A DNA stretch of 64,000 nucleotides from Alphaproteobacteria bacterium (GTDB lineage: Bacteria; Pseudomonadota; Alphaproteobacteria; MPNO01; UBA830). Made by a program: the position numbers and the translations under genes. Shown here piece by piece: positions 8,308 to 14,341 of the stretch. How positions within the stretch are numbered: the stretch's first letter is position 1; the number at the start of each line of letters is the position of its first letter. Location of the stretch: the NCBI GenBank assembly GCA_965243135.1, contig OZ251539.1, positions 4,544,001 through 4,608,000 of the forward strand. Direction: 5' to 3'. The notes beneath the pieces are model-generated. The model was not told the origin of the DNA. It made no database searches and worked only from the letters and a program-made list of their open reading frames with translations.

Positions 8308-8416
8308 GTAAGCGTTCGGTCGTGGGGTGGCGACGTTGAGGCCTGCCTCCAGGCAGGGGCTTCAACCAGACGTCCTTGACCGGGAGGGCGCGTTCGTTTC
8401 GGGTACTGCCGCGGCC
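8308..8416 (-). repeat. Inverted, slightly diverged copy of the element right end including the 3' end of the DUF4338 gene
   Basis: Reverse complement aligns to ~10973-11101 (encodes ERALPVKDVWLKPL vs ERALPVKDIWLKPL). Confidence 0.92.
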
Positions 8417-8523
8417 TACGCCGCCCCTCTGGTTGGCACCCGGCAACAGGTTTCTCGCGAAGTCCCGGAGAGTAAGCGTTCGGTTGCGAAGCGGGCTGTC
8501 GAGCCAGGCGAATCGCCCAGGCC

Positions 8524-8552
8524 TGGACACTCTTCTTTTGTTCTTGTATACG
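8524..8552 (+). promoter_or_regulatory. Putative sigma70 promoter of the transposase
   Basis: TGGACA-17bp-TATACG, 6 bp before ATG 8559. Confidence 0.55.
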
Positions 8553-8558
8553 GCTGCC

Positions 8559-10205
8559 ATGGCGGTCGAATCTGCACGCACGCTTTCCGGGACCGAGCTG
8601 TCGGGCGACGGCCAAGCTCTGGCTGCGGCATGCCGAGCGAATGCGGCTCTCTGCCAGGCGCTGGAAAGCGCACTCGATAAAGCGGAGAAGTTTCGCCGCG
8701 ACGCCGAGAGGTGGCAGGGAGCTTTCCACCGGGCGATGGCGCTGATTAGAATCCTGAAAAAGAGACGCGAGGCGCCGCCCCGAGAGACGGCAGAGAACGA
8801 GAGTCTGAAGTCCCGCAGCCGCAGGTTTGCCCGGGAGTTGTTCGGGCGCCGCAGCGAGCGGCAGCCTACGGCAACCGGTCGACGCCGGGGGCGCAGTCAG
8901 GGAACGCCGTCGCACGGCCGCACGCCGCACCCCGAGCTGCCCGTTCGCGAGGAGGAGTCGCTTCCGGACGAGCGCACGTGTCCGGACTGCGGCAAGGCCT
9001 GGGTCTCGAACGGTTGGAAGGACACGGATCTCATCGAGACCAGGACCGTCACCTATGTCCGGAGGATTCGACGGAAGCGGCTGCGCCCGACCTGTACCTG
9101 CCGACCGGAAAAGGAGGCCGTCGGCCCGGCTCCGGCGCGGCTGTTTCCGAACACTCGGTACGGAGTTTCCGTCTGGGCGTACGTCCTGGCGGAGAGGTAC
9201 GGCCTGCACCGTCCGTTGCGCTCGGTCTGCCGCGCGCTGGGTCAGCACGGGCTTGCCATTGCGCCCGGCACGTTGGCGGACGCTCAGCGGGGATTCCTGC
9301 GACTGTTCGAGCCGCTCGACGATGAGATCTCCCGGCGCCTGTCGGAGGCGCCGGTCGTTCACGGCGACGAAACAGGGTGGTGGATACGGGAGTTGGGCGA
9401 AGAAGACGGCGGCAACGCTCGCGCCTGGGCATGGATCGCCCGGTCGGCGGACGCGGTTCGCATCGTTATTCTGCCGTCGCGCAGCGCGGAAGCCGCCCTT
9501 GAACTGTTCAGGGGGCTCGGCTCGCCCGAACAGGCGGCTCACCTGGTCTGCGACCGCTACTCCGCCTACCGGAAGCTGGCGCGCGTCATGGAAGGGTGCA
9601 TCGTCCTTTCATATTGTTGGGTCCATGCCAGACGGGACTTCATCAACCTTGAGACCGGCTACCCGAACCTCGCGAAGTTCGCCCAAAAATGGCTTCGTCA
9701 CATTGCGGCATTGTACCGACTCAACGCCAGGCGTCTGGCGTGTCCGGGCAACGCCGCCGCCCAGCGGCGGCTCGCGAGATTCGCCGGAGCGTTCTTCGCG
9801 GCGGCGAAAAAGGCACGGGACGCGCTTCCGGAGAGCGCGGCGCAACGCGGCCCTCTGGACTCCCTGCTACGCCACCGCGACGGCCTGACAGTGTTCGTCG
9901 ACAACGCAGACGTTCCCATGGACAACAACCCCGCCGAACGCGGCCTGCGCGGCCTCGCGATCGGCCGGAAGCTCTCGTTCGGGTCGCATAGCGTGGACGG
10001 AGCGCAGTTGGCGGGCATGCTCTATTCCATCTTCGGCACGCTCGAGATGGCCGGCGTCTCGCCGTACCGCTGGCTACTCGGTTATCTCGATGCCTGCGCC
10101 CGGCATCGCGGTCCGCCGCCCGAAGGCCCTGCTGCCTGGCTGCCGTGGGGCGCAGGCGAGGAGCGTCTCCGCTCCTGGCGTCCCGCTCTCCCCCAAGGAC
10201 CGTGA
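8559..10205 (+). CDS. IS66-family DDE transposase (TnpC-like)
   Basis: Zn finger CPDCG...CTC; HGDETGW, LVCDRY, YCWVHARR, DNNPAERGLR...GRK; start uncertain. Confidence 0.93.
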   Translation: MAVESARTLSGTELSGDGQALAAACRANAALCQALESALDKAEKFRRDAERWQGAFHRAMALIRILKKRREAPPRETAENESLKSRSRRFARELFGRRSERQPTATGRRRGRSQGTPSHGRTPHPELPVREEESLPDERTCPDCGKAWVSNGWKDTDLIETRTVTYVRRIRRKRLRPTCTCRPEKEAVGPAPARLFPNTRYGVSVWAYVLAERYGLHRPLRSVCRALGQHGLAIAPGTLADAQRGFLRLFEPLDDEISRRLSEAPVVHGDETGWWIRELGEEDGGNARAWAWIARSADAVRIVILPSRSAEAALELFRGLGSPEQAAHLVCDRYSAYRKLARVMEGCIVLSYCWVHARRDFINLETGYPNLAKFAQKWLRHIAALYRLNARRLACPGNAAAQRRLARFAGAFFAAAKKARDALPESAAQRGPLDSLLRHRDGLTVFVDNADVPMDNNPAERGLRGLAIGRKLSFGSHSVDGAQLAGMLYSIFGTLEMAGVSPYRWLLGYLDACARHRGPPPEGPAAWLPWGAGEERLRSWRPALPQGP

Positions 10206-11074
10206 GCGGCAGCCCCCGCCGCTACTGCGGGCGCGACTTCTCCGAGGACGAGGTCGACATGATCCGCGGCCTGATCGCGAGGGGCGGCCTCCACCGCCGG
10301 GCGCTGTCGCGGGAGGTCTGCCGCCGCCTCGACTGGCGCAAGCCCGACGGCGGCCTAAAGGATATGAGCGCGCGCGTCGCCATGTTGCGCATGCATCGCG
10401 ACGGCGTGATCGTCTTGCCGCCGCCAAGGCGCGCGCCGGTCGTCCGCCGTCCGCTCGTGCCCGGTCCCGCGACCGACAGGCCCCCGTTCCCGACCCCCGA
10501 GCGTCTCGCCGATATCCAACCCGTCGCCGTTGAGCCCGTCCGGAACGCGGGCGAAGGCCGCCTCTGGAACGAGTTCGTCGCTCGCTACCACTATCTCGGC
10601 TATTCGACGCTGCCCGGCGCGCAGATGCGATACTTCGTTCGGGCCGCCGGAGGCGAACCCCTCGCCGTCCTCGGCTTCGGCGCCGCGGCCTGGAAGATCG
10701 CGCCGCGGGACAAGCTTGTCGGGTGGGATCCCGAGACCCGCCGCCGCAACCTGCCTCTCGTGGTCAACAATGCAAGGTTCCTGATCTTGCCGTGGGTCCG
10801 GATCAAAAACCTCGCGTCCTGCATCCTTGCCATGGTTGAATGTCGCCTGCCCGACGATTGGGAAGGCCGCTACGCGTTGCGCCCGGCCCTGATGGAGACC
10901 TTCTGCGAGAGCACGCGCTTCGAAGGAACCTGCTACCGGGCCGCCAACTGGACCAAGGTCGGCAAAACGCAGGGCCGCGGCAAGCTCGATACCCGGAAAG
11001 AACGCGCTCTCCCGGTCAAGGACATCTGGCTGAAACCCCTGCGCCGGGACTGGAGGCGGCTCCTCAATGAATAG
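10202..11074 (+). CDS. DUF4338 (Druantia DruA-like / Mom-related) protein
   Basis: RYHYLGY, LGFGAAAWK..RD...GW, VVNNARFLILPWV..NLAS, ETF, GTCYRAANW..VG.TQGRG; GTG start overlaps the transposase TGA. Confidence 0.9.
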   Translation: MSGSPRRYCGRDFSEDEVDMIRGLIARGGLHRRALSREVCRRLDWRKPDGGLKDMSARVAMLRMHRDGVIVLPPPRRAPVVRRPLVPGPATDRPPFPTPERLADIQPVAVEPVRNAGEGRLWNEFVARYHYLGYSTLPGAQMRYFVRAAGGEPLAVLGFGAAAWKIAPRDKLVGWDPETRRRNLPLVVNNARFLILPWVRIKNLASCILAMVECRLPDDWEGRYALRPALMETFCESTRFEGTCYRAANWTKVGKTQGRGKLDTRKERALPVKDIWLKPLRRDWRRLLNE

Positions 11075-11181
11075 GCCATCACCCCACGACCGAACGCTTA
11101 CTCCCCGGGGACTCCGTTGTCCGTCGAGAACTACGAAACCCGGTCTTGCGGCCGCCCGCTCGCCGCCAGCTTTCCCGGCGG

Positions 11182-11397
11182 TCACCCGCGGCGTTTGCTG
11201 GCCCGCCCGTCAGTCCGGCCCGGCGTCGACTCAACGCCCTCTTCCAGCAAATGGCGAATCCCCTTCACGGCCTGCCTGGCATCCTTGACGGCTTGCCGCC
11301 TGATCTCCTCTTCGCGTTCAGCTTCAGTCCGGGCCGGACGGCGAGGCGGTATCCATGCTTTGTCCTTCCGTGTCTTCTCCAGCTTGTAAATCATCAT
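11182..11397 (-). CDS. Small hypothetical protein (71 aa)
   Basis: Strong SD (GGGGAGGG) before MMIYKLEK; follows the pseudogene below. Confidence 0.4.
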   Translation of the reverse strand: MMIYKLEKTRKDKAWIPPRRPARTEAEREEEIRRQAVKDARQAVKGIRHLLEEGVESTPGRTDGRASKRRG

Positions 11398-11399
11398 TT

Positions 11400-11940
11400 T
11401 CCCTCCCCTTTGGTCGGCACCGTGGTCTGCAAATATAGTCTGGCTTCGACCTCTCGTCAAAGCACGGCTTCCTTTTTGTCCGCGCAAATCCATCTCCCTT
11501 GGAGATAACGGCGATATCGATCAGGCCTCCTACCGTTCCCTGCTCAAGGGATGCCATTCGCTTAACGGACATGAGATTTACGAGGGCCTCCACCATATTC
11601 GCGAGCTCATCCTTTGGCAAGCATGCGACAATATCCATTATCGGATCTATAAAACGACCTTGCCCGAAGTATTCCGCCGCAGGCTCAAACTGTTTTTCAA
11701 CCATCCTCTTGGCGGCTTTTCGAACACGTCTTCGGTTTATGAGAGTTGAAGGTTTATGGAAATCGAGAAGTTCCGTTCCGAATTAACAAAGAAATTCTAT
11801 AGTCGTCGAACTTATGCAATCGAGATATTCTGGATCAACTCCTTTCATGAACCTGCGAACCATCTCTGCTTGAGCAAAGGGCAGCAGCAAAGGTTCCATC
11901 CAGATTTATTTCCGTGCCTTTACGAATGTCGTACATCTCC
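11400..11940 (-). pseudogene. C-terminal remnant of a conserved hypothetical protein with proteasome-beta/Ntn-hydrolase-like motifs
   Basis: PFAQAEMVRRFMKGVDP, LPKDELANMVEALVNL, TVGGLIDIAVISKGDGF; internal TAA; AT-rich. Confidence 0.75.
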
Positions 11941-11949
11941 GTGACAAGG

Positions 11950-12204
11950 CGACAGGATCGACGATACCGCGAGCTTGCACTCTTCCGCAAGAACAGGGGC
12001 GCGCTACGCAAGCCTCAAGGCCAAGGGTTATCCGGTCGGGCGTCGTGGAGGCCGCCAAACAAGGCGCTGGTCAACCAGCGCATGAAACGGGCGGGCGAGC
12101 GCTGGCGCGTCGAAGGATGTCAGGACCTCCTCACCCTCAGAGCACTGGTCGGACCGTCTGGCATGGCGACTGGGGCTGCGAACCAGATGTCGAACGTCGC
12201 CTGA
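11950..12204 (+). pseudogene. ISKra4/ISLre2-type transposase C-terminal remnant
   Basis: Frameshifted RYASLKAKGYPVG..VVEAA.KALVNQRMKRAGERWRVEG.QDLLTLRAL. Confidence 0.8.
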
Positions 12205-12549
12205 CGGCGGAAATCCCGATTCCACAAATAAAAACAAGGAGTTCGGCAAAAATAAATTCGCGCTCCCGGCCGGTAAGCGTTCGGTCGCGGGGTGACCTGC
12301 CTGTTCCGCCTCCAGACGGGCCCACGCTGGTTGCATGTTTCCTCAGGCTTTCCGCCCATGGCCGAACCCTGGAGGTTCGACGGGTCCGCCTCGCTCGACC
12401 GGACGACGCTCCCGTTCGACGGAACCGCAGCCTGGAGTTCAGGCGTTTCGCCGCTTGCGGGTCTTCCTGCGGGCCGCCCCTGCTGCCGCCCCGAGGACGG
12501 GCGATGAACGCCACCGCCCCGTTCCCGCCCTGGCGCAAGCGTCTCTCTC

Positions 12550-12578
12550 TTGACGTTCGCATCGGCGCCGCGGATACT
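12550..12578 (+). promoter_or_regulatory. sigma70 promoter inside the cassette
   Basis: TTGACG-17bp-GATACT, followed by SD AAAGGA and ATG 12605. Confidence 0.7.
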
Positions 12579-12604
12579 GTCTCCCTTCTCTGGAAAGGAC
12601 GCTC

Positions 12605-13030
12605 ATGAGTGCCTTCGCGATCGCTAACCTCGCCGTCGCTTCCGTCAACGCGCTCGCGGCCGCCGTCGCGGCCGTCGGCATCTGGTACGGCATCCGCGCG
12701 ATGGTCCGCGCCAGCGACGAACGCGGGCAACAACAGCGCGCGGCTACGCAGCAGCAGAGCGAAGCCGAAGAACGCCGCCACGAGGAGAGCATGACGGCGC
12801 TCAAGGCGCTGATAGCCGGCCGACGGACGACGGGGCGGGAACGAAGGGCGCCTGACGCCCTTCCCCGCCGGCGAGACCTCGAAGTCGAGCGACTGTCGCG
12901 GTCGCGCGGGGCGCAAGTACCGGCGCCGTCGGTCGCAGCAAAAATCGAGAGGCGAAGGATCCCGTTTCCGGTCCCTGGACGAAATTTTTTCGTCCCCCGG
13001 GTAGCGAACGCTTACCCCGGCCGGAGTTGA
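12605..13030 (+). CDS. Small membrane-anchored coiled-coil hypothetical protein (cassette cargo)
   Basis: Hydrophobic N-terminal helix to GIWYGI, then Q/E-rich helix EERRHEESMTALKALI; the tail runs through the cassette end and may be read-through. Confidence 0.65.
   Translation: MSAFAIANLAVASVNALAAAVAAVGIWYGIRAMVRASDERGQQQRAATQQQSEAEERRHEESMTALKALIAGRRTTGRERRAPDALPRRRDLEVERLSRSRGAQVPAPSVAAKIERRRIPFPVPGRNFFVPRVANAYPGRS
12977..12995. terminator. Hairpin near the cassette right end
   Basis: GGACGAAA-TTT-TTTCGTCC perfect 8-bp stem. Confidence 0.4.
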
Positions 13031-13055
13031 CGCAAGGATTCGCTGCGCCTACGTT
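13027..13055 (+). promoter_or_regulatory. Putative sigma70 promoter of the nuclease gene
   Basis: TTGACG-17bp-TACGTT; SD GAGGA before ATG 13097. Confidence 0.6.
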
Positions 13056-13096
13056 CGAAATGACTGTCGCTTCGACATGAGGACGCGAGGAGGAAG

Positions 13097-14341
13097 ATGA
13101 GCGACGAGCGGGCGCGGCTGGCGGAATTGCTGTTGAAAGACGCGGCCATTCTGTACGAGAGGCATGGAGCGGGCCGCCCGGAGCCTTTCAACGTGTTTAC
13201 CGTCCTGCGCAGAGAGAGTGACGAAGTCAACCTTCATTCCCGGTTTCTCCACGCTCTGCTCAACCATCGGAAGCCCGGCGGCGAGGAAGGGGCGGCGAAT
13301 CTGCGTGATTTCAGGGAACAATTCGCTCCCGAACCTCTGCGCGACTTTGCGCTCGATGGCGCGAAAGTCGAGCGCGAACGCGACTACATCGACATTCTGA
13401 TCACGAACGATCGCGGACAGGCTCTGGCGATCGAGAATAAAATCTACGCTGGAGATCAGGATCGACAGCTGAAAGGGTACCGTGAAAAATTGGTGAAGCA
13501 AGGATATAAAAAAGAGGACATACACTTATTGTACTTGGCGATCGACGGTCGCAACCCTTCCGAAGCCAGCGTCGATGGTCTTAGTGAAGAAGAATATACT
13601 TCGATCTCTTACGAGGCTATTCTCCCTTGGCTTGAGCGTTGCCGAAAACGAGCCTATGATGAACCCGAACTGCGGGAGTCCATTGCACAGTATTCGCGCT
13701 TGATAAGGAGGATGACAGGTAATGACGGAAGGAGCGAACTTATGAAGGATTTGAAGGAACTTTGCTTGCGGGACGACAACCTTCTTGTCGCTCACCATTT
13801 GGCGGAAGCCCTGATTCATGCCAAGGCTTCTCTGATGCACGATATGTGGGAGAGGATAAAGAGCATCCTCGAAGAGAATTCTTTTGATAATCCTGTGGAT
13901 TTTGCCGGTAACAAGAAAAAAAGACCGTCGGATATTTCCGAAAGCAGAATCATTAACGTCTTAAACCCAAAACCCACAGAGCTTGCGGCATTTGGCCTGT
14001 ATTATTCGTTTGGCCAAGAACTTGCCCGTCTGGGCGTCCAAGCTGATCTTGTCGACGGTTTCGTTGTTGGCGTCCTCTGCGATAAAAACGGAAGCGAGGA
14101 AAAATATAATATGATCGAAAGAAGGCTTAAGAGCCTTGAGAGTAAAATCGGCAAAGGAAAAACGTCAGATGTCTGGCCTTGGTGGTGCGTTTTGAAACCC
14201 GATGGAACAGGTTTTCAACCGGGTGACATAGAGATTCTAGCGGACGAGAATAAAAGAAACAAGTTGGCCGACTCCATCGCGAACTCCGCCGTCAAGAAGT
14301 TGAGCGCCATTCGCGACGAATTCGCTACCGCGGATTCTTGA
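13097..14341 (+). CDS. PD-(D/E)XK nuclease superfamily protein (PDDEXK_4-like)
   Basis: FNVF..L...DEVNLHSRFL, ERE..YIDILI, AIENKIYAGDQ..QL..Y; AT-richer than the core genes. Confidence 0.88.
   Translation: MSDERARLAELLLKDAAILYERHGAGRPEPFNVFTVLRRESDEVNLHSRFLHALLNHRKPGGEEGAANLRDFREQFAPEPLRDFALDGAKVERERDYIDILITNDRGQALAIENKIYAGDQDRQLKGYREKLVKQGYKKEDIHLLYLAIDGRNPSEASVDGLSEEEYTSISYEAILPWLERCRKRAYDEPELRESIAQYSRLIRRMTGNDGRSELMKDLKELCLRDDNLLVAHHLAEALIHAKASLMHDMWERIKSILEENSFDNPVDFAGNKKKRPSDISESRIINVLNPKPTELAAFGLYYSFGQELARLGVQADLVDGFVVGVLCDKNGSEEKYNMIERRLKSLESKIGKGKTSDVWPWWCVLKPDGTGFQPGDIEILADENKRNKLADSIANSAVKKLSAIRDEFATADS

Follow-up and report, generated by a model that had tools for sequence, protein, structure and literature searches.

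The window analysed here, a stretch of 64,000 nucleotides from the 6.1-Mb genome of an alphaproteobacterium, harbors an IS66-family insertion sequence (IS) that encodes a transposase and a DruA/DUF4338-like protein. At 1.17 kb from this IS lies a 743-bp stretch that is bounded by IS66-type ends and carries a small open reading frame (ORF), and it is followed by a gene for a PD-(D/E)XK nuclease. The features discussed below are the following (+ and -, forward and reverse strand).

8308..11101 (+): autonomous IS66-family element, 2794 bp, with its own duplication TCCCCGGG
8559-10205 (+): transposase gene of this IS (Pfam DDE_Tnp_IS66, 1.9e-50)
10145-11074 (+): DruA/DUF4338-like gene of this IS (Pfam DruA, 4.7e-43)
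12265..12272 (no strand): left copy of the 8-bp target site duplication CCCGGCCG, read in the sequence
12273..13015 (+): non-autonomous IS66-derived element, 743 bp, an internally deleted member of its family
12273..12297 (+): left terminal inverted repeat, of the type of the right end (IRR) of the neighboring IS
12384..12460 (+): 77-nt leader module (element positions 112-188), found by BLAST at 84-92% identity
12550..12578 (+): promoter-like TTGACG-17-GATACT, the only promoter-like match in 12200-13150 (0.1 expected)
12592..12599 (+): Shine-Dalgarno-like GGAAAGGA, kept in the aligned copies, with 5 nt between it and the ATG at 12605
12605..13030 (+): passenger ORF, 141 aa, with an N-terminal membrane helix and a heptad-repeat helix
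12818..12819 (+): junction of a 43-nt deletion (frameshift) inside the ORF, from the alignment with nine other copies
12931..12937 (+): approximate junction of an internal deletion of about 480 bp, at a short imperfect direct repeat
12977..12995 (+): 8-bp palindrome GGACGAAATTTTTTCGTCC within the conserved right end
12991..13015 (-): right terminal inverted repeat, of the type of the left end (IRL) of D-type IS66 elements
13016..13023 (no strand): right copy of the 8-bp target site duplication CCCGGCCG, read in the sequence
13097..14341 (+): downstream PD-(D/E)XK nuclease gene (PDDEXK_4), a candidate defence gene (Pfam, 2e-29)

Boundaries and insertion of the element

Terminal inverted repeats starting 5'-GTAAGCG are a hallmark of the IS66 family. 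Both ends of the 743-bp element carry the 11-nt tip sequence GTAAGCGTTCG, which is common to 19 transposase-bearing elements of the genome and whose exact matches in the window are confined to 8308, 8472, 11101 (-), 12273 and 13015 (-). The copy at 8472 is a second one within the IS, 164 nt inside its left end. The terminal inverted repeat of the 743-bp element is 25 nt long and imperfect, with 80% complementarity. At the left end, 22 of the first 23 nt agree with each end of the IS at 8308-11101, and the likeness to the right end of this IS resumes at CCGCCTCCAG. The last 53-55 nt of the right end share 87-91% identity with D-type IS left ends at six places, and the two ends resemble different IS66 subgroups, the left one being A/B-like and the right one D-like. 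The IRL that PMC12888890 shows as an example from an IS66 element begins with GTAAGCGTCCGG, and a table in PMC3281130 gives a target site duplication of 8 bp for both ISPpa5a and ISPpa7. It is by its tips, its 8-bp duplication and its homology beyond the tips that the element in the window is assigned to the IS66 derivatives. It is non-autonomous, since no transposase lies between its ends and a related autonomous IS is present in the genome; tblastn with the IS66 transposase and DruA-like proteins detected no transposase homology inside the 743 bp.

The original prediction, made by a model from the letters and a list of ORFs, had claimed a 743-bp span with IS66-type ends, a perfect 8-bp duplication, a left end that tracks the IS right end beyond the tip and an interior lacking a transposase, and all of this was confirmed: the span is 12273-13015, CCCGGCCG stands at 12265-12272 and again at 13016-13023, and the left end matches the IS over 22 of 23 nt and then again at CCGCCTCCAG. 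Its further statement that the termini are shared with the nearby IS is correct for the tips and the left end, whereas the right end fits another subgroup.

An empty site is provided by a paralog of the region of the downstream PD-(D/E)XK gene in the same genome, where the target is held once. The octamer appears there in single copy, as CCCCGCCG; window positions 12237-12272 align to genome 3944997-3944963 (minus strand) and positions 13016-13140 to genome 3944970-3944840, and the two flank alignments overlap by exactly the 8-bp target. A paralogous locus with an uninterrupted, single target indicates a true transposition insertion. Contigs from four public runs, some of them recorded as sponge metagenome, split into differing flanks exactly at 12273 and 13015. 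In two of the four runs, possibly the source sample, contigs span both junctions just as the window has them. The joint of an empty site, 12272 to 13016, was not seen in the contigs of these four runs. Among the 30 relatives searched with the 3-kb region, the flanks are not conserved and no orthologous empty site was found (four relatives gave short matches only, of 30-81 nt). The empty site for which the original prediction had proposed to look was thus recovered in paralogous form, but neither in an ortholog nor as a joint in the runs. The 743-bp stretch is a real, well-delimited mobile element inserted by transposition, and its arrival as a non-autonomous, IS66-ended element, as had been proposed, is documented by the perfect duplication together with the paralogous empty site.

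A 145-nt contig of run X5 (depth 9.4) contains a right end and a left end that face outward about 9 nt apart, which could reflect a tandem pair, a circle junction or two insertions side by side. The list of termini of the window's genome contains no such outward-facing arrangement.

A dispersed family and its IS66 parentage

With the 743-bp element as query, 79 places of the genome were matched, and a 1425-bp copy used as query yielded 66 clusters, about 29 of which hold at least 170 bp of family sequence. The element is therefore not a single copy, which would have spoken against the original prediction, but one of a family of about 29 loci. Full-length copies measure 1079-1479 bp. Family copies are 72-96% alike, and the window copy is at most 91% like any other, so that the family looks old; this divergence, set against the eight identical copies of the neighboring IS, makes current activity of the family doubtful. 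Exact scans for a 28-nt left-end and a 26-nt right-end pattern found nothing in either genome_contigs or metagenome_contigs, collections that possibly do not cover the window's own genome.

A genome-wide catalogue was made of inward-facing end pairs that lie within 6 kb of each other and carry a target duplication. It comprises 23 pairs, and chance is excluded because the duplication is a perfect 8-bp one in 23 out of 23. Nineteen pairs contain transposase-related sequence, including the eight copies of the window's IS. The other four have no transposase gene, and they are the 743-bp copy, a 1479-bp copy, a 59-bp mini-element and a 2573-bp element. The mini-element (genome 2294699-2294757) is made up of nothing but a left-type and a right-type end and is flanked by a perfect GGATGCTC duplication. 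Among two-ended family copies that were checked, only two of six have a duplication (four of eight when the mini-element and the 2573-bp element are counted), and no partner end with a matching duplication turned up within 6 kb of 13 one-ended copies or ends. Another non-autonomous deletion derivative is a C-type IS66 element of 1973 bp (genome 478513-480485), in which the transposase and DruA-like genes are reduced to fragments and a perfect duplication GTTCCGCT is kept.

The full-length copies reveal more of the parentage than the copy in the window does. Their right part of about 500 bp is related to the left part of the D-type IS66 subgroup, with 65-69% identity to the D-type IS interior further in from the terminus. 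In 7 of the 10 aligned copies, tblastn finds decayed matches on the opposite strand, within residues 8-275 of a D-type transposase ORF (E 1.8e-19 to 0.002), and the window copy has none. Longer variants track the right end of the neighboring IS for about 65 nt, a stretch that includes the last codons of the DruA-like gene. No transposase or DruA-like protein that was tried matches the left ~850 bp of full-length copies. Judged by these alignments, full-length copies look like a gutted IS66 element in which a leader and a small gene probably form the middle. The ancestor would have kept both IS66 ends: on one side the IS left end with the first ~260 transposase codons, since decayed, and on the other the IS right end with the final codons of the second, DruA-like gene. 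The leader and the small passenger gene would have replaced the interior, the gene lying antisense to the old transposase, and the copy in the window was later shortened by about 480 bp, plus 43 nt in the passenger gene.

For its movement, such an element would depend on a DDE transposase of the IS66 family supplied from another locus of the genome, which would bind both terminal inverted repeats; a staggered cut of the target upon insertion would then leave the 8-bp duplication. Both the supply in trans and the choice of the transposase are presumed. The neighboring IS is one candidate source. It is present in eight copies, with 0 differences over 2794 bp and a perfect 8-bp duplication at each. 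Its copies lie all over the genome, so that its adjacency carries no weight. The original prediction had named the adjacent IS as the partner, but nothing singles it out, and the right end of the element fits another IS66 subgroup. B- and C-type elements in the genome have long open transposase frames; those of D-type elements are broken, so that the cognate enzyme may no longer exist. The 2573-bp relative is bounded by two left-type ends and a duplication without mismatches, from which it follows that one end type on both sides sufficed.

The IS66-family elements of this genome carry a transposase and a DruA/DUF4338-like gene instead of the classic TnpA/TnpB. In the IS of the window these two ORFs share 61 nt, read in different frames, and in two C-type copies (4531468-4534225 and 3599666-3602524) the transposase and the DruA-like protein are in one frame, of 885 and 876 codons, respectively.

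The passenger gene, its signals and its decay

The promoter and the Shine-Dalgarno sequence that had been claimed are both recognizable, the former as the promoter-like match at 12550-12578 and the latter as GGAAAGGA, 5 nt before the ATG. The promoter hexamers and their spacing are intact in 6 of the 10 aligned copies; in three the spacer is shortened (one of these also lacks GATACT), and in one the -35 hexamer is altered. At the other end of the gene, the palindrome at 12977-12995 is kept in the right ends of the family and largely in the D-type IS left end. The fold of the right end (12940-13015) has a z of -1.14, with 28 of 200 shuffles as good, and the canonical T-tail is absent after the palindrome. 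The left end folds no better than shuffles either (z +1.12).

One intact copy of the passenger gene encodes 149 aa. Searches with the protein yield 108 homologs (E<=0.01) and 363 representative clusters (E<=1e-3), and an N-terminal hydrophobic helix (...VAAVGIWxGIRAMVRAN.ER) and a C-terminal motif are conserved. The number of RRHEExM heptad repeats varies, and the internal repeat periods of the ORF, 21 and 87 nt, are both multiples of 3. Six copies compared over their first 46 codons have 6, 7 and 12 variable columns by codon position. A structure model consists of a single helix over residues 3-127 (pLDDT 87.5). Neither Pfam nor PADLOC gave a match, PHROGs gave one weak match only (E 0.013), all NCBIfam matches are sub-threshold, and the best ESM Atlas score is 0.86, below the lead level of 0.9, a holin-like cluster scoring 0.83. 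The protein family is real but unannotated, and the best guess, from sequence features, is that its members would be single-pass, membrane-anchored coiled-coil proteins facing the cytoplasm.

The gene is present in 8 of 78 genomes of the order, including the window's own. It was found in none of four congeners and in none of 25 genomes of the same family, and 7 of 20 genomes of another family of the order possess it. No IS66-type end was found within about 1.5 kb of the 17 homolog loci in those seven genomes, and the DNA likeness of homologs from other genomes to the element is confined to the ORF. Since homologs in other genomes have no IS66 ends, the passenger gene is captured cargo and not part of the transposition machinery. 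One of these seven genomes (G038, loci L027 and L050) contains tandem arrays of 5-8 passenger-gene paralogs, which differ mainly in heptad-repeat number.

In the copy of the window, this gene is damaged. The 43-nt deletion at 12818/12819 is seen by comparison with the other copies, whose contigs carry the missing letters exactly there (loose ends at 12819). The resulting frameshift, which follows ...ALKALIAG, skips the family stop codon TGA at 12853-12855, and the ORF ends 15 nt past the element. The deletion of about 480 bp corresponds to positions ~860-1341 of the 1425-bp copy (loose end at 12936) and removed the transposase remnant. The window copy also has the fewest heptad repeats when compared with the nine other aligned copies. 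Only 5 of the ~20 passenger-gene copies in the genome are intact (one lies at 5690509-5690063), and at least 11 share one N-terminal frameshift, which implies that dead versions of the gene were copied as well. What had been described as a complete expression unit is a copy with two deletions, whose gene is frameshifted and has lost its own stop. The claimed ORF does exist, but it is not wholly inside the cassette, as it runs 15 nt into the flank, and the claimed terminal hairpin is better described as the conserved end palindrome. The window copy is most likely a decaying relic rather than a working gene shuttle.

The gene into which the element points is itself a candidate for defence. It matches PADLOC PDC-S26 (5.1e-83), has three paralogs in the genome, runs in the same direction as the passenger ORF and begins 73 nt past the right-hand CCCGGCCG. 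The promoter-like site and the ORF of the element point into it with no clear terminator between, and the promoter-like site may send transcription into the nuclease gene. None of the 11 sequencing runs found is listed as RNA.

Upstream of the passenger gene, the 77-nt leader module is a repeat in its own right. It recurs by itself at some 23 further sites of the genome (e.g. 2761454-2761529), and these solo modules lie in a leader of about 650 bp upstream of AAA-ATPase_like/PDDEXK_9 genes (18 loci aligned). An Rfam search of 11000-13200 at E<=1 gave no match, the leader module included, and its fold is no better than that of shuffles (z +0.63). A gene of the same kind is carried by the 2573-bp element (genome 956485-959057), which holds a decayed copy of the small gene and an intact ORF of 589 codons with AAA-ATPase_like (1.8e-61) and PDDEXK_9 (3.8e-19) domains. 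Genes of this kind (for example L057 1218-2987, minus strand) are numerous here, as tblastn gives 108 matches longer than 400 aa with a median identity of 71%, and a 1.5-kb stretch of the gene gives about 140 BLASTN matches. An IS66-type end lies within 1 kb upstream of 5 of the 108 paralogs.

It had been suggested that other copies might carry different cargo, and one relative, the 2573-bp element, does so, but the catalogue contains only two cargo kinds. These give some, if thin, support to a modular build. It is unlikely that, in this sponge-associated bacterium, the right-end-type repeat and the shared leader form a modular cassette system joined to at least two unrelated cargo genes (the small membrane coiled-coil gene and the nuclease-type AAA-ATPase_like/PDDEXK_9 gene), which would have helped to seed and spread those families; if so, such cassettes could be moved using two ends of the same type.

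Relation to known elements and rival readings

Several known classes of mobile DNA resemble the element. Mobile insertion cassettes (MICs), whose prototype is the IS231-MIC231 pair of Bacillus cereus (De Palmenaer et al. 2004, cited in PMC3281130), are described in PMC3281130 as IS inverted repeats around passenger DNA, with no transposase and a modular build, all of which applies to the window family. Movement via a related IS in trans, also part of that description, would apply to it by inference. MIC231 derives from the IS4 family, whereas the parent here is of the IS66 family and the ends come from two IS66 subgroups; full-length copies of the window family, unlike the MICs described there, still hold a transposase remnant. 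As to the intact passenger gene of MICs, only 5 of the ~20 copies of the family have one, and that of the window copy is frameshifted. IS66-family elements with passenger genes ("tIS66") have been reported as well, e.g. ISPa75, which carries fosZ (PMC12888890). They share with the window family ends beginning GTAAGCG and a captured non-transposition gene between them. In the description given by PMC12888890, tIS66 elements are autonomous and encode TnpA, TnpB and a DDE transposase, whereas a working transposase is lacking in the window family, whose parent combines a transposase with a DruA-like gene. The element is thus not a tIS66, as it does not encode its own transposase. It is not a composite transposon either, given that each end consists only of a ~25-nt repeat and subterminal sequence, without complete IS copies. 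A strict MITE would be non-coding and up to a few hundred bp long; both the window copy, with 743 bp and an ORF of 141 codons, and the full-length copies (1.1-1.5 kb), with a gene and a promoter-like site, are larger than typical MITEs, and the 59-bp member, a true miniature element, is the only relative that fits the strict definition. In the literature searched, no IS66-derived mobile insertion cassette and no link between DUF4338 and IS66 was found described. The idea of an undescribed cassette family is not supported, as the kind is already known from MICs and from passenger-carrying IS66 elements. The element is genuine mobile DNA, though of a fairly ordinary type, and entails no new mechanism.

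It is probable that the stretch in the window is one copy of a transposase-less, IS66-derived family that moved in and then decayed. The original prediction went further and saw in it a working gene shuttle, that is, a complete promoter-gene-terminator unit with a dedicated partner in the adjacent IS and membership in an undescribed system of varied cargo. The conserved promoter-like and ribosome-binding sites agree with this, as do the perfect duplication with its empty paralogous site, the left end identical to the neighboring IS ends in 22 of 23 nt, the different gene in one family member and the evident activity of the neighboring IS, with its eight identical copies. Yet the gene itself is frameshifted by the 43-nt deletion and has lost its stop, the hairpin is unconvincing as a terminator, and the right end fits another IS subgroup than the neighboring IS, the copies of which are scattered genome-wide and deprive the adjacency of any weight. 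With only two kinds of cargo among the four duplicated transposase-less elements, and with copies that have diverged from one another, a working shuttle is rather improbable.

A simpler alternative would be a mere internal-deletion remnant of an IS66 element, the ORF being a chance open frame in GC-rich DNA. The original prediction had itself named a deletion remnant as the outcome that would undo it, and part of this outcome is seen, for full-length copies keep a decayed transposase N-terminus and a DruA-like tail. Long spurious ORFs are also plentiful on both strands of the family copies, and the protein was matched to no Pfam, NCBIfam, PHROG or PADLOC family. However, a chance frame would not be expected to have 108 homologs with conserved motifs, some of them in tandem arrays that lack IS66 ends, or repeat periods that keep the frame, and the left ~850 bp of full-length copies are not matched by the transposase and DruA-like proteins that were tried, all of which makes this reading very hard to sustain. 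Spread by recombination or segmental duplication, with coincidental flanking octamers, could account for the four of six checked two-ended copies without a duplication and for the many one-ended fragments that have no second end within 6 kb. Against it stand four transposase-less elements whose 8-bp duplications are perfect (by chance, about 1 in 65,000 for each), the precise empty site at the paralog, and the contigs of four runs that diverge exactly at 12273 and 13015; it is scarcely credible as an explanation of the element in the window.

The decayed, transposase-less IS66 derivative has consequences for the annotation of this genome. Some 29 repeat loci are explained by this family, as are about 20 copies of a small gene that lacks annotation, and the ORF at 12605-13030 should be read as a pseudogene-like readthrough and not as a novel protein. 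As regards transposition, insertion was possible both with ends that resemble two IS66 subgroups and with two ends of one type. Finally, with the empty paralogous target as an internal control, the locus documents how an IS66 element can be reduced to a transposase-less carrier of a small gene, which then decays further.
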